From contig NC_043020.1 of assembly GCF_006345805.1 (NCBI RefSeq), positions 16,058,001 through 16,122,000 on the forward strand: a DNA stretch of 64,000 nt, written 5' to 3'. The notes under the pieces were generated by a model. That model ran no database searches. It saw nothing but the letters and a program-made list of their open reading frames with translations, and was not told where the DNA came from. The first letter of the stretch is position 1. Each line of letters opens with the position of its first letter. This DNA is from Octopus sinensis (taxonomy: Eukaryota). A program made the position numbers and the translations under genes. Positions 707 to 61,039 of the stretch are shown piece by piece.

Positions 707-2212
707 AGGGTGACCATAATGTCTGGTCACATGGGGAATATCACTGGTATTCTTGTGGAATGGGCTCCTTATTCATCAACCAGATTTTAATCCCCTTGAC
801 TTCTTTTTCTAGGGTATGCGGATGAAGGTGTACTCAATGAAAATCACAGATATGAATCATCTGAATTAATGCCACATGAATAAATGTAGTCAAATTGATG
901 TAAATGTGGAGTTATTGCATCAGTTTCATTTGACTCTTGCACAGCACTTTGAACTTTGTGGTGAAAACCATGTTGAAAATGTTATTAATATAGCTGGACT
1001 ATTACATTTGGAGTGCAGTCAAGACAGAGGTCAATCAATGTCCCCATAACACCATACAATCTCTCAAGTCCATCTTAACCAGCACTATGGTAAAAATTGG
1101 TAAAAAGCATCTGATTCAGGCATCTCAACACTTCTGATTTCCTCATTCACCAACCAGATTTCAGTCTCCTTGACTTCTCTTTCTGGGGTATACTGAAGGA
1201 GACGGTGTAATCAGTGAAAATTACAGGTATGAATCACCTGAAGGAACACTTCATGGATGAATGTGATCAAAGTGATGGAAATGTGCAGTTGCTGAATTGA
1301 GCTCCTTTGGATCTTGCAGAGCGTATCAAACTTTCAACTCTGATGGTAGAAACCATGTTGAAAAAGTTATTCATCAATGTAGTTGGACTATTACGTACGG
1401 AGCTGGAGCATAGTCGAGAAAAAGGTCAAACAACGTCTCCATACCACCAGAGAATCTCTTGAGTTCGCCACAACCAGCACTTTGCCAAAAACTGGTAAAA
1501 ATCCTCTCATCTGATTCAGGCATTTCAACACTTCTGACCTCCTCATGCATCATCCAGATTTTAATACCTTTGATCTATTTTTCTGGGGTACGTTGAAGGA
1601 GAGGGTAATACTCAATGAAAACCATAGATGCGAATTATCTGAAGGAACACAGCATGAATGAATGAGCTCAAATTGGTGGAATTCAGGTTCACGTGAACCT
1701 TGCATGTATCAAACTTTGCAACTCTAATAGTAGAAACCATGAAAATGCTATTCATCAATGGAACTGAATCATAGTCGAGAGGGAGGTCAAACAACATTGC
1801 CATAACACCCTACAATCTCTTGGGTATGCCATAACTAACACTTTGCCAAAAATTGTTAAAAATCTTCTCATCTGATTTGGGCATCTCAAGACTTCTGATT
1901 TCTTCATTCACCAACCAGATTTTAGCCTCCTTGATTTCTTTTTCTGAGGTATACTGAAGGAGACGGTGTAATCAGTGAAAATTACAGGTATGAATCACCT
2001 GAAGGAAGACTTCATAGATGAATGTGCTCAAAACAATAGAAATGTGGGGTTTACTGAATTGGGTTCATTTGAATCTTGCAAAGTGTATTAATCCTTGCAT
2101 CACTAACAGTGGAAACTATGCTGAAAATGTTACTCATATTAATGTAGTTCAATAAAATTACTGAAAATATGTATTCTATATTTGGCAAGTTTGTATTAAG
2201 CTTCTAAAACCA
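707..2212 (+). mobile_element. Tc1/mariner-superfamily remnant with four tandem copies of the transposase C-terminal segment
   Basis: Begins with a CAGGGTG TIR-like end. The repeated unit translates as PDFSLLDFSFWGILKETV*SVKITGMNHLKEHFMDEC (SPDLxPxDFxxWGxxKxxVY motif). Unit anchors at about 780, 1154, 1554 and 1915. Stops and frameshifts throughout. Confidence 0.8.
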
Positions 2213-2850
2213 AGGTGCCATGTAAAAAGCATTGGTGATGGTGCCACATAAAAAGTACACAGTACCCTCTGTAGAGCGATTGGCATTAGGAAGGGTGTAC
2301 TTGTGGCGACGTTCACCCTGGGCAGGTTGTCGGCTTCTTCCACCACCCTTGAGGCATCTCGAATCATGGCAGTGGAAGAAGTTTCATCGGAATATGAATT
2401 TCACAAGCGGTCCCCAACAATCTCGCATGTAGAGACATCCTGTTTGTCGCAGATTGTCCGCAGATGCAGGGACAGAACGACCGAGGAGCAGCCGGTTGCC
2501 GAAACAGACACTCCGAGGATTTTCACCAGAGCCCCGTCTGCCGGGTTGTGGCCTTAATACCACTCGGTGTCAGACCAATCTGCCTTGGGCGGCCCTACCA
2601 GGAACCGAAGTTCCCGACGGCATAGCTCTGGCACTACCTGACGCCAGCGTCCACACTATGGTGAGGAGGGGATCGACTAGGAAGGGTGTCCAGTAATAGA
2701 AACCAAGGTGAAACAGAAAAATGGAGCCTAGTGCATTCCCTGGCCTTGCCAGTTCCTGTCGAGCTATCCAACCTATGCTATGGAAAACTGTTAAATGTTA
2801 AATGTTGAAGATGATGATGGTGATGATGATGATGATGATGATGATGATGT
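2213..2850 (+). mobile_element. RTE-type LINE 3' end with (GAT)n tail, interrupted by a younger insertion
   Basis: TAAAAAGCA...TTGGCATTAGGAAGGG...CCAACCTATGCTATGGAAAA...(GAT)n, matching many other copies in the window. Confidence 0.75.
2299..2677 (-). mobile_element. Young 379-bp non-autonomous RTE-derived element with 12-bp TSD
   Basis: Flanked by TAGGAAGGGTGT at 2287-2298 and 2678-2689. CpG-rich. Contains AGAGCTATGCCGTCGGGAACTTCGGTTCCTGGTAGGGCCGCCCAAGGCAGA, which resembles RTE/Expander 5' UTRs (from memory). Ends in ACAAGT. Confidence 0.7.
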
Positions 2851-3079
2851 TATTCCTTGACAGGTACATTTTGTGTGACAATATTGGCAGATACGAAGCA
2901 GAGAGTTCTTGTTTTGGAGCCTTTAGCAATAACATCTGGGCAGTTGACATTAGCTGTACAATCACTATATATGTACTGTAAAGTCCCAAAGGATGGTAAT
3001 GTCGTTACTTTCAGCTCCAGAGTTCAGCACCGAGACTTTGGCACAAAGTCCATTGTATGTATTGGTCAACTCTGTCATG

Positions 3080-3500
3080 TCATCATCATCATCATCATCG
3101 TTTAACGTCCATTTTCCATGCTAGTATGGGTTGGATGGTTCGACTGTGGTCTGGGAAGCCAGGAGGCTGCACCAGGCTCCAGTCTGATCTGCCAGTTTTT
3201 CTACAGCTGTATGCTCTTCCTAACACCAACCACTCTGAGAGTGTAGTGGGTGCTTTTTATGTGCCACCAGCACAGGGGACAGAAGAGGCTGGCAATGGTC
3301 GCGATCAGTTGGTGCTTTTTATGTGCCACCGGCACAGAAACCAGTCAAGATGGCGCTGGCATCGGCCACATTCAGATGGCATTTTTTACGTGCCACTGGC
3401 ACAGGTATCACAACTACAATTTCCATTTGATTTTATTTTGATGTTGATGTACTTGACTCAATAGGTCTCCTCAAGCACAGCAGGTCACCCTACGATCCAA
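3080..3500 (-). mobile_element. RTE-type LINE 3' UTR fragment
   Basis: (CAT)n-CGTTTAACGTCC...TTTCCATGCTAG...GGGTTGG end, with internal GTGCTTTTTA(T/C)GTGCCAC subrepeats. Confidence 0.8.
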
Positions 3501-3501
3501 T

Positions 3502-3662
3502 GGGCTTCTTTCAGTTTCCGTCTAACAAATCCACTCACAAGGCTTTGGTCGGCCCATGGCTATAGTAGAAGACACTTGCCCAAGGTGCCACACAATGGGA
3601 CTGAACCTGGAACCATGTGGTTGGTAAGCAAGCTACTTACCACACAGCCACTCCCACTCCTA
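3502..3662 (-). mobile_element. tRNA-derived SINE family A, 5' half
   Basis: Reverse complement of GTGGCTGTGTGGTAAGTAGCTTGCTTACCAACCACATGGTTCCAGGTTCAGTCCC...GGCACCTTGGGCAAGTGTCTT. Confidence 0.85.
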
Positions 3663-5990: not shown

Positions 5991-6271
5991 AGCATAGTTG
6001 ACTGCATCTAGCCAGATGGTGCTAAGTTGCTTCAGACTGTCTTTGAATGTAGTACAGTTGCTCAAGGTGCCATGCTGTGGGATTGAACCCAGAACCATCT
6101 GGTTGGGAAGCAAAGTTGTTACCACACAGTCATGCCTGAAGATTTTATTTCCAAACTAGATCAGATAGGATTATATTGGAAAAGAATGCCTTCAAGTGCA
6201 TTTTTTCCTTTTGCTACTGAGGAAAGTCTGCTATAGGATTCAAAGTTTCCATGACAACGTAATACTCTTTT

Positions 6272-6418
6272 TTAATGAAAATGTTTCAGGAACTCTGAAA
6301 TTTGTACGAAAGTTAGTCTACCAGTTAGAAGAAAAAAACCCTGCGTGGCACCTTGGGCAAGTGTCTTCTACTTTAGCCTCGGGCCGACTAAAGCCTTGTG
6401 AGTGGATTTGGTAGACGG

Positions 6419-6477
<59 letters not shown>

Positions 6478-6652
6478 GGTATATACGATGGGCTTCTTTC
6501 AGTTTCCGTCTACCAAATCCATTCACAAGGCTTTAGTCGGCCCGAGGCTAAAGTAGAAGACACTTGCCCAAGGTGCCTCGCAGGGTTTTTTTCTTCTAAC
6601 TGGTAGACTAACTTTCGTACAAATTTCAGAGTTCCTGAAACATTTTCATTAA
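6272..6652. repeat. 150-bp inverted repeat around a (TA)n spacer
   Basis: Arms 6272-6421 and 6503-6652 are reverse complements with about 2 mismatches. Each arm is a SINE A fragment joined to about 70 bp of other sequence. Confidence 0.95.
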
Positions 6653-7220
6653 TAATTAGGGTTCAGCAAAGATTTGCTTTACCACATACCGAAGTTTAGA
6701 AATAGCAGCCAAAAAACGTTAGCTATTTCTTCTACTTTAAAAAGGGACTCCCAGAAAAACCAAAAATACTTGAAAACACACTCAAAACAGCCAGATCTGA
6801 CTCCTCACACCTATCCTACAATATCATTTTAATAATAAACAATGACATCATAATGCAGTGAGCTGGCAGAATTGTCAGCACAACAGGCAGAATGCTTAGC
6901 AGTATGATGCCTATCTTTATGTTCTGAGTTCAAATTCTGCCAAGGTTGACTTTGCCTTTCATCATTTTAGGGTCAATAGAATAAATTACCTGTTGAACAC
7001 TGAGGTTGATGTATTTGACTGAACCCCTCCCCCTGGAATCACTGGCTTTGTGCCAAAATTTGAAGCCAATAAACAATCACATCAGCAAAATCTTGAAGCT
7101 ACAAGATAATGCATGATTAATTGAAAACAATGTGAATAAATAAGCTTTACAATTCACAGAGTAATCTGAGTGTTAAGAGGTTAATTAAGTGATAATTACC
7201 TGTCTATTGAAAGTTAAACA

Positions 7221-13475: not shown

Positions 13476-14309
13476 AGAATGCTAAACAAGAATGGTTAAT
13501 ATAACAATGCTAATGAGTTCAATGATTGCAATGATAGTTACAGTCTATTGTTTGTCTGTGGAGTTAACGAGAATGACATCATCAGTCAGTGTATGATGAT
13601 TTCTATGACAGGCCAGACGAAGAGAGATGCAGTATTAAATTTCCCAATGGCACTCTCTGCCATAATAACATATAGTTAAGCACTGAGTGACATATCTTAT
13701 TATCACGTACCAAATGGAATTTCTTAATAAATTGAATTTTCATGTCCAAGACTATAATAGAAGACACTTGTTCTTCAGTTCCATAGTGTGGCTCTTTGGA
13801 CAAGTGTCGTCCATTGTAGCCTTGGGTAGAACAAAGATTTATGAGTGTATTTAGTAGATGGAAATTGAAAGGAAGCTGCCATATTCTAGTTTTTACTTGT
13901 TCTAGTCATTAGACTGCGGCCCATGCTGGGGCACTGTCTTGGAGAATTTTAGTCAAACAAATCAACACCAGGACTTTTTTTTAAAGCCTGCTACTTATTC
14001 TATCAGTTTCTTTTGGCCTAACCATTAAGTTCCATGCAACATAAACAAACCAATGCCAGTTGTCAAACAGTGGTGGGGTCAAACACAATCACAAAAACAC
14101 ATACACACAGAGACACACACGCATACACATTATTTATAAATCGATTTGGCTCCAAGCAATGTACAGTTTCACAAGCCTCTAACAGAAGCTTGTGAAATTT
14201 TAAGTAAGTTACATGGAACTAGATCAAACTGTAACCCCCACTAAATGAGTTGAGTGCCCTTTTCTTTCATTTCTTCACTCACTCTAATATATATATATAT
14301 ATATATAAA

Positions 14310-14463
14310 TTTAAATAATAAGGGTGAATAATTGAATATTAATTTGATTAATATCAATTTAAAACCAGTGGCTTAGCATATTGAAAAATCTGAAGATTCA
14401 GAAAAATTATATTACATAAATATAAAAGGGATGACCACTAAGTGGACATCCATTATGCTAGAG
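14310..14463 (-). mobile_element. Fragment of Penelope/retrozyme-like element carrying the shared structured RNA motif
   Basis: Adjacent to (TA)n. Complementary pairs TAGCATA/TATGCTA (14374-80, 14454-60) and GGATG/CATCC (14429-33, 14447-51). Confidence 0.55.
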
Positions 14464-14499
14464 GTAGACCCCATATAGTATCTTTTCATTTGCCTTGCT

Positions 14500-20265: not shown

Positions 20266-20373
20266 CTACTAGCTACAGCGGTACATATTCTGAAAGTAGA
20301 GTGATACAGAGAAGATTAGCATGGCCCCTGTGCAAGGATAATATGCAAATTCGTGAAGCGTCCCATATTTTTT
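20266..20373 (+). pseudogene. U6: U6 snRNA pseudogene (full length, diverged)
   Basis: GATACAGAGAAGATTAGCATGGCCCCTGTGCAAGGATAATATGCAAATTCGTGAAGCGTCCCATATTTTTT matches the U6 ACAGAGA box, AGC triad, ISL and 3' U-tract. Several substitutions. Upstream is only (TA)n with no visible PSE promoter. Confidence 0.93.
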
Positions 20374-23044: not shown

Positions 23045-23077
<33 letters not shown>

Positions 23078-23084
23078 ATATAAA

Positions 23085-23459
23085 ATAAATATAAGAGAGT
23101 GGTCACTATATGGCTCACTCTAGCACCAGTTAATCCAAAAGGTTTCAACCACAAAAATACATGTTTCCCATGAAAGTCAGTACGATTGTTAGCTCACACG
23201 GACAGGGCAAATAAAAAATAACAAAAATACAGATTATTTTGGGACAATTGTTTCGCTATTAATGAATTAAATGTAATTTTACTTACAAAAAAATCCACTT
23301 GTAGCTCGTCAGCCAAAACTATCTGGATGAAATCCACTCAATCACATGCCAGATTTTACCATAACGATAAATACGCGTGTGGTTCAATTGATTACATCCG
23401 ACGTTATAATTCAAATGCCCCAACTAACAGCGCGCCAAACTTTCACGGAAAACAAATAC
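23085..23459 (-). mobile_element. Penelope/retrozyme-like non-coding element ending in (TA)n
   Basis: Contains a canonical hammerhead and, about 115 nt downstream, an AGAGUG/CACUCU stem followed by CUU and an AU-rich end. Confidence 0.7.
23236..23319 (-). ncRNA. Type I hammerhead ribozyme (canonical core, GUC site)
   Basis: guuuugg CUGACGA gcua...uagc GAAA caauug UC ccaaaau. Stem I 7 bp, extended stem II, palindromic stem III. Confidence 0.88.
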
Positions 23460-23461
23460 TA

Positions 23462-31227: not shown

Positions 31228-31725
31228 CTATATATATATACATATATATATATATATTTTTCACCGGAATAGTTCAATACTGAATTTTTGTTCAGAGTAG
31301 GCAAGTTGTTACCGAAATGCATTGCGGAAAAGCCCGCCATTTTCATAGATATGTAAAGATAAACATTCATACATGCTGCCGCGAATTCTACAGTTGGTTG
31401 TCGGGTATGTGATGTTGTGTTTTTTCTTACATGTCTTGAATTCGTTGCACTGAAGAGCATAGAATGCATATTCTGCATTGATTGCGAAATCACAGGTGAT
31501 ATGTAACTAAATTCTGTTTTTAAATGACTCGCTTTGAAGTTTTGCATTCGGTACAATTTGTTTATTTTAGTAGTTTTGACTGCAAAAGTCCCTCCTAGCA
31601 TGCAGTACCTATGAATAATAGTACCCTCTATATAATATAAATAAGTATTTTCTTTCTCTTACGAGGTTTTTCACGCTAACTACTTGATAATTTCTTATAA
31701 AGATTTTATCTTATTTTTAAATTTA

Positions 31726-35924: not shown

Positions 35925-35955
<31 letters not shown>

Positions 35956-35956
35956 T

Positions 35957-36280
35957 AAAGGGTGAAATATAATTAATTTAATAAAATCAATAAATTTCAC
36001 TAGTAGTATTTCGGTATGGAAAAGGACCATATTCGGTAAAAATATATATAATTATAATAATAAGGGTTTTTTTGCAACAAGTTGCTTAATCCGAAGACTG
36101 TGTGGTTTCATTGTTTTTCTTCTTTTTTTTTGCCCTAAGTGAGTCACAAATATTGTTGTCTGTAGAGACTTATTTTTGTAGTAAAAGGAAATAGTAATCC
36201 TTTGACTGCTATTTCTAATATTTTCGGTATGTGGTTTAAGCAACTTGTTGCAAAAAACCCTTATTATTATAATTATATAT
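35957..36280. mobile_element. Penelope/retrozyme-like fragment with inverted end, carrying the shared RNA motif
   Basis: Embedded in (TA)n. Arms about 36042-36089 and 36235-36280 are inverted. GCTATTTCTAA...TTCGGTATGTGGT matches 6655-6730 and 38490-38565. Confidence 0.7.
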
Positions 36281-36295
36281 TTATATATATGTATA

Positions 36296-37817: not shown

Positions 37818-37821
37818 ATAT

Positions 37822-38012
37822 AGGGAGAATTCACAAAAAAAAACAAAAGACGAAGACAGATGGTGTAGACAACAAACAGATGTATTAGTTTAATGCTCAG
37901 AAAGTGAAAAAGTCTTTAACGTTTCGAGCCTACGCTCTTCCACAGAAAGGAACACAGAAAGAAACAAGGAGAGAAAACAAAAAATGTGTAGTGGCTAGCG
38001 ATCTATCATGGC
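37822..38012 (-). mobile_element. Penelope pseudo-LTR-like fragment in (TA)n (copies at 38370-38483 and 54922-55110)
   Basis: Three homologous copies, all abutting (TA)n or (TACA)n at the same GGGA end. Contains a minimal hammerhead. Confidence 0.75.
37914..37949 (-). ncRNA. Minimal hammerhead ribozyme, A6U core variant
   Basis: cuuu CUGUGGA a gagc guag gcuc GAAA cg UU aaag. 4-bp stems I and II, ACGU palindrome in place of stem III. Confidence 0.65.
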
Positions 38013-38032
38013 AAATAGGCGTATATATATCT

Positions 38033-38075
<43 letters not shown>

Positions 38076-38478
38076 CATACAGATATAGATGTATATATAT
38101 ATATAAACATTATTGTTTTAACATTCACTTTCTATGCTTCATGGGTTGAAAGGAATTTGTTGAGGCAGATTTTCTTTGGCTAGTTGTTCTTCCTGTTGCC
38201 AACCCTTACCAGTTTCCAAATAAGGTAATATTTACCCGTGGTTAGTTATGTTTATGCAGAATTTTGAAAATGAATGCCATTCATTTTCAACAATCATGTT
38301 GTGACAAGTCAAGGAAACAAACATACACACACATACACATACATACATACATACATACATACATACATAGGGAAGGTTTACGAAAATAAACAAAAGACGA
38401 AGGCAGGTGGAGTACAAACAAACAAATGTATTAATATGGTGCTCAGGAATAGAAATAGAACAAGTCTTTTACATTTCG

Positions 38479-39101
38479 AGCCTTAAAAAAGTTTTTTAGC
38501 TGCTATTTCTAATGAGTTCAGTATGCGGCAAAGTAATTTATTTTACTAAGCCCTTTTATATAATGTAATAATTTGAATTCGCCTTGAATGGTCCCTTTGC
38601 ATACTGAACACTTGGTGAAATTGATTAATAATTAATTAATTTTGCCCTCAATGTTGAAATTATAATTAATCTCCCTCTGATTAATGCTTCGGACTTTACC
38701 GAAATAAGCATAGAGTTTGATGATTTTAACCCACGCTGGTGGAAAGGGGAGAACAGAGATTCTTCGCTTGCTTATTTTGAATTTGTTGACACTGTTAGTT
38801 GGGAGCAGATCTTCGAGAGGGTATGTTCTTATTTTCAGTGTTTCCAAATCCAAACCAAGGAATTTCCGAGCCGATGATAGAAATGTTGTTTTGACTAATC
38901 TTGAAACGTACGTTCTCGAATAACCTTAGCATTTGATTTTTCGATGTCATTACCCCCAAACTTTTGTGAGTTAAATTATGCAAACACTATATATGAGAGA
39001 GATTTTCTTTAAGTATTAGAAATAGCCTTAAAAAAGTTTTTTAGCTGCTATTTCTAATGAGTTCAGTATGCGGCAAAGTAATTTATTTTACTAAGCCCTT
39101 T

Positions 39102-39109
<8 letters not shown>
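38479..39109 (+). mobile_element. 545-bp monomer plus 86-bp terminal redundancy, hammerhead-containing (retrozyme-like)
   Basis: 38479-38564 is identical to 39024-39109. Non-coding. Ends in (TA)n. Confidence 0.8.
38864..38920 (+). ncRNA. Type I hammerhead-like motif (CCGAUGA core, partly decayed)
   Basis: uuccgag CCGAUGA uaga...ucuu GAAA cguacg UU cucgaa. Palindromic ACGUACGU stem III. Confidence 0.6.
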
Positions 39110-39167
<58 letters not shown>

Positions 39168-45476: not shown

Positions 45477-48400
45477 AATGACCTGATGCAATATCAGGCA
45501 GTGGCTCTCATGGCTTCTGATCATAACTGATTGGAAGAATTAACATGTACATTTTTTTTGTCGTGGTATAAAAGATGGGCTACAGTAAATATTCTGCTCA
45601 TTACCACAGATTTGCTTGTCATTTTCTTGGCCTTAACCTGTTGAGCATGTCCCTTAGTGGCTGACGATATGTACATCTCTGATCATGAGCAAGTGTGGGA
45701 GTATTATAGCCATGTGTTGAGAAGAATTCTTTGGGGTTGTTAGCACGCCAGGTGAAATACTTAGCGGTATTTTGTCTGCCGTTACATTCTGAGCTCAAGT
45801 TCTGCTGAGGTTGACTTTGCCTTTCATCCTTTCAGGGTTGATAAATTAAGTACCAGTTACGCACTTGGGTCGATCTAATCGACTTAATCCCTTTGTCTGT
45901 TCTTATTTGCCCCCTCTATGTTTAGCCCCTTGTGGGCAATAAAGAAATTAAAAAAATTTACCTCTGGAAACTTGTGTTTTGTTCAACATCTTTAAACAAC
46001 CCTTATTCAGGGACCTTTTGAGTATAATCTCTGGAAGAAAAATAACTTAGATAAAGATAACTTAGATTTGGATACAGTAATGAACCCTAATAAACTAGCT
46101 AACATACAGAGATTTATTCTCAAACCTAAAAAAAAATTATCAGAAATAGAAATAGAACACTTAAAAGGAAAAATACATCAGGAAAACATAGATAGTAACC
46201 ACACAGCAATGCCAAAGAATATCAAAAGCACAGGGATTGTAAAATACGAAGACAGAAGTAACATGTCCAACAAAAACGAAGTAAATAATGAAAGACAACA
46301 AACTCAGACCATAGGAATGTATAATGATGAACAAAATGAACCAAACCAGAATACCACAGACAAAAATATGAATGGGAGGGAATACGAAATAAATCTAAAA
46401 CCTGGAAACAGAGAAGGTGAAACTAATGATTATGATACTCCAAAAGTGAGCATAATCAAAGCTATAGATCTCAGTATGGATCACAGATTGTACCTCCCAA
46501 AAATTAAAATTGATAATAAAACAACATTAATAATAAATAACATGAATCTGGTCACCACTGAACTAATGACCACAGAACCAAATGTCAATATGACCAGGTT
46601 AAATGATATAATATATGCAGCAGCCATTGTGGCCACAAAAGAAGTAGGAGACCCACCAAAACCCATCCAGGCAGGAGTATCATCACCCAAACAAACCCCG
46701 TGGATAAATAATAACCAGAAGAAAAATAGAAAATAAGGGAAAGGATCTGTCAATCTTTAATGAAACTAGTAGACATTCAACACTACTAAGTTACAAAAAG
46801 GAAAGAAAAATACTATGTAAATACAAAATCACAGAGTAAAGTATATCTGAAGTAGAAGAATAGCTAAAGCAAGATATCCTCACCAAAGCACAAAGAATCG
46901 GCCGGTATGAGAAACGTCAACATTTCTTTGAAAACAAACAGTTCAACTCCAACCCCAAAAGATTCTACCAAGAACTTAGCAAAACTAAAATAGAGATCAA
47001 TGCAGCATCAACAGCAGAAGAAGTGGAAGAATTTTGGAAAGAAATATGGTCAGTGAAGGAACAACCTCAGGAAAGATCTATCAAAACAATAAACACAGCA
47101 TCTGAACAACTCTGGACCCCTATAACAATTGAAGAAATCACCCAAGCACTGCAAAAACTAAGCAACTGGAAGGTACCCGGGCATGACAAGATCCCCCACT
47201 TCTGGTTAAAATATCTAACAGGAACACATAAAACGCTGGCTGAAAAATTTAATGAAATGCTAGCAGAGCCTGAGGCAGTGCCTGGATGGCTCACAGAAAG
47301 GAAAACTATCCTAATTCCCAATCTACTGAAATGGCAAACTCACAAAATTGCAAACCATTAACTTGTCTCCCTATAATTTACAAAGCCTTTACTGCAATAA
47401 TATTGCAGAGAATGGGCAAACATCTGGAAGAAAGCAACCTGTTTCCAGAAGAGCAGAAGGGATGCTGCAAGGGTTCATACAGCTGTAAAGATCAGCTACT
47501 GATCAATAAAGCCATAACTGAAGACAACTGCTGAAAGAAGAAGGGTCTTAGTATGACTTGGATCGATTACCAAAAGGCTTTTGATAGTATTCCCCACACA
47601 TGGACCCTAGAAACACTAGCCATGAACAAGGCAGCACCAATAATCATAGAATATATAAAACATTCCATGAATAAATGGCAGACAATGCTACAGCTCCAGA
47701 TAAAAGCCATCCCCACTAGAAGAAGAATATTCCATGGAGACACGCCCTCTCCACACCTTTTCTGCTTGGCACTCACACCTTTATCTGACATGCTAAACAA
47801 CTGAATGTGTATATAAGTGTTATGGTAAAACAATCACCGATCTCTTGTATATGGATGATCTAAAACTGTATGCTACAAATGATAAACAGCTGGAAACATT
47901 ACTACAGACAGTACATGGATTTACTGAAGAAATGAAGAAATAAACATGAAATTTGGCTTAGAAAAATGTGCCAAAGCAACCTTGAAAAAGGGAAAACTAG
48001 TTAAAGTTGCAACATCACACTAGATAAAGCAAATGGAATAAGAGAATTAGATCAAAGCAAGACATACAAATACTTAGGAATCAATGAATATGATACAACA
48101 TACACAAATGAAAGAGAAGATAAAAAAAAGAATACTATATATGAGTTAGATTAATAGTGAAAACAGAGCTCAATGTGAAAAACAAGATAATAGGTATCAA
48201 CACTCCAGCCATCCCAATTATAAGTTGCAGCTGTAATATTCTTAACTGGACTCTAAATGAACTAATCAAAATAGACAGGTAAACAAGAAAAATAATGACA
48301 GGATTCAGGATACACCACCAAAAATCTGACATAGAAAGGTATGGAAGGTGGTAGAGGCATTATACAGCTAGAAAACTATTACAAAATAACCACCATACAA

Positions 48401-54700: not shown

Positions 54701-55944
54701 ATGCGCATAGGGAAATGCTCAACAACATCACATTTCCGTAGGCTACTTGAACACCTTGGAATTGCACCTCATTATGTGAGCAAAGTGTGGAGGTGCATGG
54801 CTCAGTGGTTAGGGCATTGGACTCATGATTGTAAGATTGTGGTTTTGATTTATAGACCGGGTAAAGTCCACTCAGCTGGTAAAAATGAGAAAATCTGTAA
54901 CAGGAGAAATATATATATATATGGGGAGAGTTTACGAAAAAAATCAAAAGACGAAGACAGATGGTGTACAAAACAAACAGATGTATTAGTATAACACTCA
55001 GGAATAGAGAAAGTCGTTTACATTTTGAGCCTATGCTCTTCTACAGAAAAGGACACAGAAAAAACAAGGAGAGAAAAAATGTGTGTTGTGGCTAATGATC
55101 TATCATGGCACCTGGAATATATATATGCCAGGGTGGAATATATACACCAGAGAAACTGGGGAAGCTGGCTCTGTGCTCCTTACAGAGTAATGTGAACTAA
55201 CCATACATGTGAAGCCCAGTTGCTGCTATAGGGCTTATATTATTCTGAGGAAGAAAACTCACAGAGGGAAAACTGCTGCAGACAACTGCAGAGACTGCAA
55301 CAACAGGCCAAAAATTGTGCGCCAAGAACGATTTGCATCACTTTGAGGATAGAAGCAAAAGAAATCACCTCATTTTGTAGACTAGAAGCTGTTGACCAAG
55401 TTCAGCACCAAAAAGCCAAAAGTTTTCTCTCCCCCTGCACAGAGTCAATTGAAAAACATGGTATTTAGTGTCACAATGATGAGGTATTTAGTGCCTCATG
55501 ATGAGAGGAACAAAATTGATATGAAACTGTCAGAAAAAAAAACATGATGGCATATAAGATGAGTAAGACACAAGGAAAGGTCCATCTCCTAATGGCTACT
55601 GACTTACATTCTGGGTCCAATTAGATGGTCAATACTACAAGATCAAACCCTTTCTAAAATAACACAGTGATACTGCCTCCCATTCTGGCAGACGCAGAGA
55701 TGGGTACACCTCATAGGTACCAAGCAAAGGTCCATTTCATTAGTCCATGAGACTAATGAAATTCACAGTTCTTCAAATCATTAAAAAAACGAAGAGGCAG
55801 AGTTACTATATAATATGATAGAATAATAATAGAGCAAATTGGTGAGTTGGAGATGTGAGATGGAGCCCCACTGGTGTTCTTGATTGCATGATGAAGAAAA
55901 TTTTCTGAGTTTTCTCTTGGTTCTTTTTTTACTTGTTGTTTTAG

Positions 55945-59550: not shown

Positions 59551-60281
59551 AACAAATTATAAGTAAGGGCAAAAGAAAAAATTTCTAATGCCAAAATATG
59601 CCGAAAATAGACACTACGTCAATAACCATGTAATTTATCACTACAAGCACATGTTTCGAAGAAAGCCAACAGAAATATCTAAAAAAATCCTGTTATTACC
59701 ATATCGAACCCGATTTCAGAGTTAGTTCGTAAGAACCTTCCTTTCATCAGTGATAAATGTGGCAAAGAAATATGTGAAATACTTACTTATACCCACGGAA
59801 GAAGTGAACACTAAGTCATGAGCACAATTAAGTACCCCAAATATATCCAAAATAGAAACTCTCTAGCACACCTCGGGACATGTGTGATTCGAACTGAAAA
59901 ACTCCCGTAAAGTGAGAGAGTCCGGAAGTGAACACTATTTAAATTAACATCTTATATAGGATAAAATTTTTCGAAAAAAATTCTAACAATGGCCAGCATA
60001 TTAAAAAATAGCTTTAAAGGTTAAATTTATAAACAATTTATAAGTAAGAAAAAAAATTCTAATGCCAAAATATGCCAAAAATAGACACAGGGAAGGTTCT
60101 TATGAACTAACTCTGATATCGGATCTGATATGGTAATAACGAGATGTTTTTAGAAATTTCTGTTGGCTTTCTTCAAAACACGTGCTTGTAGTGATAAATT
60201 ACATGGTTATTGACGTAGTGTCTATTTTCGGCATATTTTGGCATTAGAAATTTTTTCTTTTGCCCTTACTTATAAATTGTT
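59551..60281 (-). mobile_element. 481-bp hammerhead-containing monomer plus 57-bp redundancy plus inverted partial copy
   Basis: 59551-59613 repeats at 60032-60088. 60091-60281 is the reverse complement of 59551-59741. A further diverged inverted piece lies at about 60760-60895. Confidence 0.85.
59696..59756 (-). ncRNA. Type I hammerhead ribozyme (canonical CUGAUGA/GAAA core, AUA site)
   Basis: uuauca CUGAUGA aagg aa gguuc uuac gaacu aa cucu GAAA ucg gguu cga UA ugguaa. Confidence 0.78.
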
Positions 60282-61039
60282 AGGCAAGTGTAAACAAATC
60301 AAAATTGCTTACGTGGCTGATGACAGTACCACCTGATTGGCACTCATGCCAGTGGAACATTAAAAGCACATCCAAGCATGATTGTTGCCAGGGCCACGGA
60401 TTGGCTCCTATGCAGGTATCATGTAGAAACACCTTTTGAGTGTGGTCATTGCCAGAACCATCTGACTGGCCTTCATGCTGGTGGCACATAAAAGCACCCA
60501 CTATACCCTCGGAATGGTTGGTGTTAGAAAGGGCATACAGCTGTAGAAACTTTGCCAGATCAGATTGAGCCTGGTATAGCCTCTGGCTCACCAGTCCTCA
60601 GTCAAACTGTCCAACCCATGCCTGCATGGAAAGCGGACGTTAAACGATGATGATGATGATGATGATGATATATAAACAATTATAACTTGTTAGCTTACAT
60701 TCCTTGTTTCAACACACTGTGTATTTATAGAGAAATATTGTATGTTGTTAGACGATATAAAGTCTATTTTTTCAGCATATTGGCATAGAAGTTTTTTCTT
60801 TTGTTCTTAGTTATAATTGTTTATAATTTTCACCTTAAAAGGTATTATAATATGCTGGCCACTGACAAAATGTTTTGGAAAAAACTTTAATCCTTACATT
60901 AGAAGTACATTTATATGCACACACACACACACACACACATACACAGATGTTTACATACAAATATGCATATATATATATATAAAGAGAGAGAGACACACAC
61001 AGACAGACAACCAGGCAGGCTGGCAGGTAGGTAGGGAGG

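Follow-up and report, generated by a model that had tools for sequence, protein, structure and literature searches.

In the genome of Octopus sinensis, six families of elements with hammerhead motifs, four of them seen as tandem repeats, share a predicted multi-helix RNA fold, and their insertions mostly end at two fixed positions, here termed S1 and S2, each of which follows one of two modules of this fold. Two-armed insertions carry one end of each kind in nearly all cases, and their arms share a haplotype. End positions, pairing, haplotypes and junctions were observed directly on genomic copies, whereas the fold is a prediction; the motif itself was confirmed as a real feature of the six families. 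We consider it probable that the motif is a two-module priming platform for a Penelope-type RT/endonuclease acting in trans, with both DNA ends primed on one RNA that is likely circular. The analysis follows up a sequence-only reading of a window of 64,000 nucleotides (contig NC_043020.1, positions 16,058,001 to 16,122,000), which had proposed a covarying motif in six diverged elements that would mark their 3' insertion point. Features of the window are listed in Table 1.

Table 1. Motif-bearing arms in the window and parts of the motif (positions refer to the window)
Position	Strand	Feature	Detail
6651..6780	-	Family D fragment	P1, P2 5' strand and module 1; ends in the linker, no TA run here
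14302..14479	-	Family C arm	Complete motif; ends at S2 beside (TA)n
23062..23460	-	Family E arm	Ends at S1 beside (TA)n; canonical-core hammerhead at about 23237-23318
35951..36092	-	Family B arm	Ends at S2; head-to-head with the 36086..36282 arm
36086..36282	+	Family B arm	Ends at S1; neither B arm contains the other
38479..39112	+	Family A arm	1.16 units of a 546-bp unit; 5'-truncated; ends at S1 beside (TA)n
38516..38664	+	Complete motif, unit read through	P2, P3/P4, CUU, AU linker with S1, P5, P2', P6, CU, AU tract with S2
38516..38526	+	P2 5' strand	Partner is 38599-38609
38527..38555	+	Module 1: P3 stem, internal loop, P4 hairpin, CUU	P3, 38527-38529/38550-38552; CUU, 38553-38555
38556..38580	+	AU linker with end site S1 (about 38562-38564)	+10 from P3 end in 22/31 family A S1 ends
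38581..38592	+	P5 small hairpin	
38599..38609	+	P2 3' strand	
38614..38648	+	Module 2: long hairpin P6 and CU	P6, 38614-38646
38649..38664	+	AU tract with end site S2 (about 38658-38664)	+12 or +15 from P6 end in 28/33 family A S2 ends
38867..38918	+	Type I hammerhead-like motif	Variant core CCGAUGA; would cleave 3' of 38914
39019..39054	+	P1, upstream hairpin present in some families	Families A, B, D
39061..39109	+	Second, partial motif	Stops at S1 (3' end of the insertion), with (TA)n following
59551..60085	-	Family F arm	1.1 units; hammerhead near 59697-59755; ends at S1
60089..60281	+	Family F opposite arm	Ends at S1 too, the sole S1/S1 pair observed; no TA flank
60766..60905	+	Decayed F-like copy of the complete motif	42.4 bits; absent from the earlier list of copies

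The elements and their hammerhead motifs

The carriers of the motif are units of approximately 480-550 bp with a type I hammerhead motif, which fall into six families (A to F) with subfamilies. Tandem units measure 546 bp in A, about 531 bp in C, 535 bp in E and about 480 bp in F, and the sampled arms of B and D comprise at most about one unit. Animal non-LTR retrozymes have been described as non-coding tandem units with type I hammerheads whose circles were proposed as RT templates, and are regarded as non-autonomous Penelope-like elements (PLEs) (Cervera & de la Pena 2020, PMC7229834; Li et al. 2026, bioRxiv 10.64898/2026.07.22.740005). Judged by their structure, the octopus elements are probably non-autonomous, Penelope-type non-LTR retrozymes as well. 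The family A arm has no ORF of 100 aa, and a tblastn search of the window and 216 loci with a PLE protein gave matches only in two neighbouring fragments.

Two exact patterns covering P2' and the start of P6 matched 3,721 and 9,468 times genome-wide (13,189 in total), compared with only 3 and 2 matches for the reversed control patterns. Of the 263 matches of the family A arm, the best 150 are 98-100% identical to it, and the other families gave 928-3593 first-look candidates each. Family discovery relied on six DNA queries and the two patterns, a design that may miss more diverged families. The six diverged elements of the original proposal correspond to six families, which are unequally independent: over the motif, A, B and D are 73-82% alike.

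A type I hammerhead motif, consisting of stem I, core and GAAAC-stem III, was recognized by sequence in all six families, with the cores CCGAUGA (A), UUGAUAA (B), CUGAUGA (C), CUGAAGA (D), CUGACGA (E) and CUGAUGA (F). The predicted cut lies 133-183 nt 5' of the P3 end in every family and P2 begins about 96-147 nt after it, in good agreement with the 100-150 nt suggested earlier. The Rfam scan of the window did not report these hammerheads, and that of family A deviates in its core and does not appear in the MFE fold of its stretch. One of nine elements tested by Li et al. was active in hammerhead self-cleavage (bioRxiv 10.64898/2026.07.22.740005). A further hammerhead-like pattern match at 31450-31501 (+) is overlapped by a weak match of the motif model (17.6 bits).

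Architecture of the motif

Unconstrained RNAfold predictions for 38479-38660 (z -3.81, with 0 of 200 shuffles as good) and for the minus-strand copy at 14305-14470 (z -4.57) have the same layout, which was also obtained each time for genome copies of all six families. A long stem, P2, closes a junction that holds P3/P4 followed by CU(U), an AU linker, twice as long in E, and the small hairpin P5; 3' of this junction lie the long hairpin P6 with its CU and then an AU tract. The folding z-score is unspecific by itself: reverse complements are about equally stable, and other pieces of the E unit match the E motif in this respect.

The helices quoted in the sequence-only reading are present, at or next to where it had placed them, both in the letters and in the RNAfold layout, and the upstream hairpin that it had noticed in three copies is P1 of families A, B and D. 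Two of its helices, near 36 and 59 kb, had been put together from halves belonging to two oppositely oriented arms, although intact, contiguous copies of both exist elsewhere in the genome.

Covariation

RNAalifold recovered P2 unaided from a sequence-only MAFFT alignment of 16 copies from the six families, with double-sided changes in 7 of 8 pairs and 98.4% of cells paired. In subfamily alignments, double changes were seen in 12 of 30 pairs for the A, B, D and F group (94.6% paired) and in 8 of 18 pairs for the C and E group (93.3% paired), from whose structure P6 is absent because its length varies. Covariation in the sequence-only MAFFT alignments exceeded that of 500 out of 500 shuffles and of all slid controls, which bears out the covarying P2 of the original proposal; the shuffles ignore relatedness, the structures derive from the same sequences and only about ten subfamilies are represented, and we rate this evidence, drawn from alignments, as good but not formal.

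An RNA model built from A, B, D and F found the held-out family C, with 31.7 bits for the window copy and 17 of 20 loci at E<0.01, and missed E, giving weak matches (E about 0.4) in 2 of 10 loci. Further subfamilies with compensatory changes of their own were found at loci L263, L264, L269, L278, L304, L308, L312 and L327, one of them in young arrays of ~502 bp units.

Two end sites and their pairing

Arm ends were mapped in 187 loci (37 for A and 30 for each of B to F), taken from the best BLAST matches, and thus not at random, after removal of duplicates. After the first mapping, which gave 81 S1/S2 pairs, the S2 window was widened by 6 nt for all families and the S1 window was widened for E, because BLAST runs through the all-AT linker of this family into the TA flank. 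Among 315 arms, 146 end at S1 and 141 at S2 (together 287), 26 elsewhere, mostly in the older families C, D and F, and 2 at the locus edge; for family A, 64 of 66 ends are at S1 or S2. In most cases S1 is found 10-17 nt beyond P3 and S2 6-16 nt beyond P6, both helices ending in CU, and the offset from the helix-CU is approximately constant across the six families. The P3 and P6 ends, and with them the tail between S1 and S2, are 88-124 nt apart. The ends are hence fixed with respect to the motif rather than random, and the motif does mark a 3' insertion point: the copies at 23085, 36280, 39109 and 59551 all end in the AU linker after CUU, as had been noted, but the second fixed site, S2, after the last hairpin, had been missed.

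A loose test that accepts decayed runs identified a TA-like flank at 63 of 64 family A ends at S1 or S2, and at 232 of 287 such ends overall. Both flanks are (TA)n, which would mask any duplication of the target. The partial tandem and inverted structure with a one-sided tail known from non-autonomous Penelope-like elements is present.

Head-to-head pairs numbered 119, of which 93 were S1/S2, one S1/S1 and one S2/S2, while 22 contained an off-site arm and 2 were cut by the locus edge. Scorable pairs were therefore S1/S2 in 93 of 95 cases (binomial p about 1e-25 against 0.5), irrespective of whether the query represented S1 arms (E) or S2 arms (C). Sixty loci picked by pattern comprised 27 that read through or end elsewhere, 12 without a partner and 21 with an inverted match; the latter, with flanks inspected by eye, consisted of 14 clean S1 ends, 2 ends just short of S1, 2 spurious matches, 2 read-through units and 1 self-match. 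This corresponds to 14 clean S2/S1 pairs and no true S2/S2 pair. A seemingly one-armed family A insertion (L031:2520-2545) carries, on the 5' side, an S2 arm no longer than ~11 bases; some one-armed copies are therefore really two-armed.

Haplotypes, arm lengths and junctions

Family A is the youngest family, and 68 of its variants are singletons. Another 29 family A variants are present in at least two units per insertion: 24 of them in every unit, one in 10 of 11 units and four in 2 of 12-17 units. Between the arms of one family A insertion, none of 233 polymorphic sites differ, compared with 2032 of 18465 (11%) between insertions; the corresponding values for family E are 2 of 74, in each case a variant confined to the reference unit, and 843 of 4772 (18%). 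In L042, L058, L059 and L060, variants not seen in any other sampled insertion occur in every unit of the insertion. Arms reach 16 units or more. Their 5' ends cluster neither near the hammerhead cut (3 of 65 with 2.5 expected, 1 of 51 and 1 of 46) nor at S1 (3 of 65) or S2 (2 of 65). At the cut site, no excess of gaps was seen over 189 internal units, and internal units also read through S1 and S2. Haplotype fixation and read-through of the cut site would be expected if a single monomer, in the simplest case a circle, were copied repeatedly.

In 18 of the 93 S1/S2 pairs, including the family B copy in the window, neither arm contains the other, and the S1 arm is the longer one in 11 of 25 family A pairs. 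At the junctions, the arms overlap by 1-6 nt in 62 of 119 cases and are blunt in 16 of 119.

Multimeric circles, sought through periodic variants, were rejected: a variant in L037 is present in units -14 and -7 and not in unit 0, and the three other variants found in two units of an insertion are aperiodic. In L1 twin priming, two primings on one RNA cause a head-to-head inversion joined by microhomology, with the second primer at variable internal sites and arms that lack overlap. Here, in contrast, neither site varies and the two arms have sequence in common, and classical L1-type twin priming was rejected given that the 5' ends do not cluster at S1 or S2. Sequencing contigs of four runs, none recorded as RNA, cover most of the unit, with strand, ends and circles unreadable from them.

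Proposed mechanism

The priming-platform reading can be laid out as a series of steps. By analogy with known retrozymes, hammerheads would cut tandem transcripts, and ligation would give monomer circles. A protein, probably a dimer, would then cut both strands in (TA)n, as the biochemistry of PAc, discussed below, suggests. P2 would position the two modules such that each module primes one DNA end, a step that builds on the ends at S1 and S2 after a helix-CU and on the presence of one of each per two-armed insertion. Both cDNAs would roll round the same circle, consistent with the single haplotype, the long arms and the independence of the 5' ends from the cut. The cDNA 3' ends would finally be joined by microhomology, which fits the head-to-head arms and their overlap of mostly 0-6 nt. 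The full scheme, namely, that an RT/endonuclease dimer loads the circle via the fold and that two rolling-circle cDNAs started from a double-strand break are fused head to head, is offered tentatively, as possible rather than probable; the protein, the dimer, the circle and the causal links are those that we infer. Several points run counter to the priming-platform reading: 26 of 315 ends lie off-site, the model from A, B, D and F misses E, no motif-bearing autonomous element was found in the 45 GIY-YIG loci covered, the family A hammerhead is a non-MFE variant, and PAc inserts in vitro without needing its hammerhead. In addition, the window's own family F copy is S1/S1, and a homogeneous source array that supplies two RNA molecules would also give shared haplotypes.

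Alternative explanations

The latter point is the core of the strongest competing explanation, which is nevertheless unlikely. The same two-site platform would operate, but the ends would be primed on two RNAs, one per protomer, or on linear concatemers from a homogeneous array. Two RNAs from one source locus would have their haplotype in common too, the sample comprised 37 family A loci out of thousands, with source arrays unseen, and PAc uses uncut linear RNA in vitro (PMC11167929). However, two independent RNAs provide no simple reason for so strict a pairing of S1 with S2, the variants fixed in all units of a single insertion need a one-unit bottleneck, and linear copying cannot lengthen arrays to the arm lengths observed.

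It is improbable that the ends are AU-rich patches that anneal to (TA)n, the fold serving circle stability, export or ligation. S1 and S2 are indeed both AU-rich, S1 coincides in part with a short TA run in families A, C and E, extensive self-pairing of retrozyme circles has been reported (PMC7229834), and parts of the E unit outside the motif are just as stable when folded. Yet the longest TA run of the A unit accounts for 0 of 65 ends; F has no TA run of five or more at S1 or S2 and A has none at S2, and nearly all ends lie there nonetheless; and the offset from the helix-CU is about the same in six families. Since TA-poor sites are used and the longest A run is not, microhomology alone does not fix the end positions. 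The location of the 3' ends at two fixed positions after a helix-CU, and not at the best TA-like run of the unit, points instead to the RT-recruiting or priming structure that the sequence-only reading had put forward as one of two possibilities.

A further proposal for the inverted arm is a single priming event followed by self-priming or fold-back, with the tail arising from endonuclease resolution and the fold acting as a DNA or RNA resolution signal. Self-priming and resolution have been published as ideas (Arkhipova 2013, PMC3846280; Craig 2021, PMC8557442), and fold-back accounts for the shared haplotypes and the short junction overlaps, but we judge this course of events quite improbable here. 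Fold-back is excluded for the 18 of 93 pairs whose arms are not nested, the balance of arm lengths in family A indicates that neither arm is regularly the parent, and the tail ends of PAc are in vitro RT start sites (PMC11167929).

The other possibility raised originally, that the motif is another self-cleaving ribozyme and generates the 3' ends of the reverse-transcribed RNA by cleaving at S1 and S2, would explain discrete ends and a covarying multi-helix junction but is very improbable, as the Rfam comparison gave no match over the motif (0 of 105 matches at E<=1 in the window overlap 38490-38650), the invariant columns of the motif alignment (16 of 193) are scattered instead of forming a conserved unpaired block, S1 and S2 are both read through in internal units, and PAc starts internally without a cut there (PMC11167929).

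Relation to known systems

The element class, the tail and internal initiation are already known, and on the preferred reading the motif is a long, structured form of the Penelope tail. The following comparisons refer to the open text of the cited papers. The octopus elements resemble published retrozymes in their low GC content, in occurring as dimers to long multimers and in their co-occurrence with Penelope-like elements (PMC7229834; bioRxiv 10.64898/2026.07.22.740005); their units of about 480-550 bp exceed the invertebrate circles of 170-400 nt reported in 2020 (PMC7229834). Insertion ends, inverted arms, a shared 3' fold and within-insertion haplotype fixation are not mapped in the accessible text of these two papers (PMC7229834; bioRxiv 2026), in which the step from circle to DNA in animals has the status of a proposal (PMC7229834; bioRxiv 10.64898/2026.07.22.740005).

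Penelope pLTRs likewise show partial tandems, a head-to-head inverted copy, an extension at one end and (TA)n targets (PMC8557442; PMC3846280). Their known tail measures 30-40 bp, whereas that described here spans 88-124 nt and is bounded by a covarying multi-helix fold. The same papers attribute the tail to endonuclease resolution or self-priming (PMC8557442; PMC3846280); the counted pairing (93 of 95) and the non-nested arms favour two primings. The origin of tandem, inverted and tailed PLE insertions was stated to be open (PMC8557442; PMC11167929).

The closest biochemical parallel is PAc, a Poseidon element of Anolis whose protein cleaves both strands and extends them, initiates RT at two internal positions and, by prediction, forms a dimer (Frangieh et al. 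2024, PMC11167929). Both systems have two sites 3' of the hammerhead, which in PAc are RT start sites that coincide with the genomic tail ends, and an AT-rich target. PAc differs in being autonomous and in having its start sites within the ORF in an AC-rich stem-loop; its hammerhead is dispensable for in vitro insertion, and the open text reports neither an in vitro assignment of strands to sites nor a cross-family structure or a circular template (PMC11167929). The PAc template was seen by eye to contain CCUU at about +105-108, just 5' of the RT start zone at +111-118 (PMC11167929), which may echo the helix-CU module or be due to chance.

In the open literature searched, the fold, a tail of ~100 nt, the counted S1/S2 rule and monomer-template haplotypes were not found; subscription papers as well as Repbase/Dfam lay outside this scope, and figures or supplements may show 3' structures. 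The available part of PMC8490949 contains nothing on mechanism. The description of the motif as undescribed thus holds for the fold within the literature searched, but not for the end sites, which match the Penelope tail and the two positions where PAc initiates RT.

This study provides what appears to be a ~150 nt cis element with natural compensatory variants and two mapped sites at which RT would start, together with a near-strict rule of one site per DNA end and a haplotype signature of single monomers. If correct, the proposed mechanism would be a retrotransposition route distinct from the TPRT of R2 and L1 that accounts for more than 13,000 motif copies in the genome. Two-ended rolling-circle TPRT would then account, in Penelope-like elements generally, for the tail at one end, the inverted arm and the tandem arrays, and the insertions would represent a genomic record of reverse transcription off circular RNA in animals.

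Search for an autonomous partner

The genome holds a young element that encodes an RT with a C-terminal GIY-YIG domain, with CxxxxCxxC before GIY-YIG and an upstream ORF, and that has many copies at 98-99% protein identity. By its description, as compared with the available literature, this element is of the Neptune/Nematis type, and it is a candidate for the driver of the retrozymes. The family is represented by L251:1174-5960 and, more broadly, L247-L260, with the upstream ORF and an intact RT+GIY-YIG ORF of 781 aa (protein at L251:2532-4874). It has its own hammerhead (UUGAUAA core) and a tail of ~30 nt with a short hairpin that is unrelated to the retrozyme motif. Its copies end beside (TA)n mostly at one site, six of them at a second site ~30 nt further on. 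By eye, both ends lie ~14-15 nt after CU(U), the second following a hairpin, a resemblance to the retrozyme modules that is only a lead.

The motif model was run against 45 GIY-YIG loci, from the top 147 of 5029 candidates and mostly of one family, and revealed no autonomous element bearing the motif; its 8 matches there are either separate retrozyme insertions or weak. Two candidate associations were rejected. L251 had been considered as an RT+GIY-YIG element with F-like pLTRs, but the duplication of the F-like piece includes the neighbour downstream of it, which makes this piece a passenger of a 5.9-kb tandem duplication, and the PLE possesses a separate hammerhead and a separate end. L137 and L150 are PLE fragments that adjoin B arms and have no common end.

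Other features of the window and related loci

A further family, G, is present at 37818-38030 (-), 38368-38483 (-) and 54909-55126 and has 3100 candidates in the genome. It carries a hammerhead-like sequence with a variant core and has one 3' end at CCCU beside (TA)n, and no tandem units were seen among 40 matches. It is devoid of the motif, the 6 model matches in its 25 loci falling outside the G copies, and the fold is therefore not universal. At 38479, the 5' side of the family A arm has no TA run and lies head-to-head with an older G arm over 4 shared bases, which can be either a target deletion with microhomology joining or a chimeric insertion.

Two observations concern the surroundings of family D. 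At 6269-6655, a 153-bp inverted duplication (98%) surrounds a TA run and stops where the family D fragment starts, and at L211:1690-2200 a minisatellite of ~26 bp has arisen from short stretches of the unit at the 5' terminus of a family D arm. The only Rfam match in the window above the gathering score is a U6 snRNA at 20266-20372 (+) with 82.1 bits and a diverged 5' stem, which is either a gene or a retrocopy. Two ORF fragments of 246 and 165 aa at 45996-47361 (+) resemble by eye a broken non-LTR retrotransposon and have no match to the PLE protein. A dispersed repeat of ~100 nt (family D19), probably SINE-like, occurs in 16 copies between 8008 and 50309.
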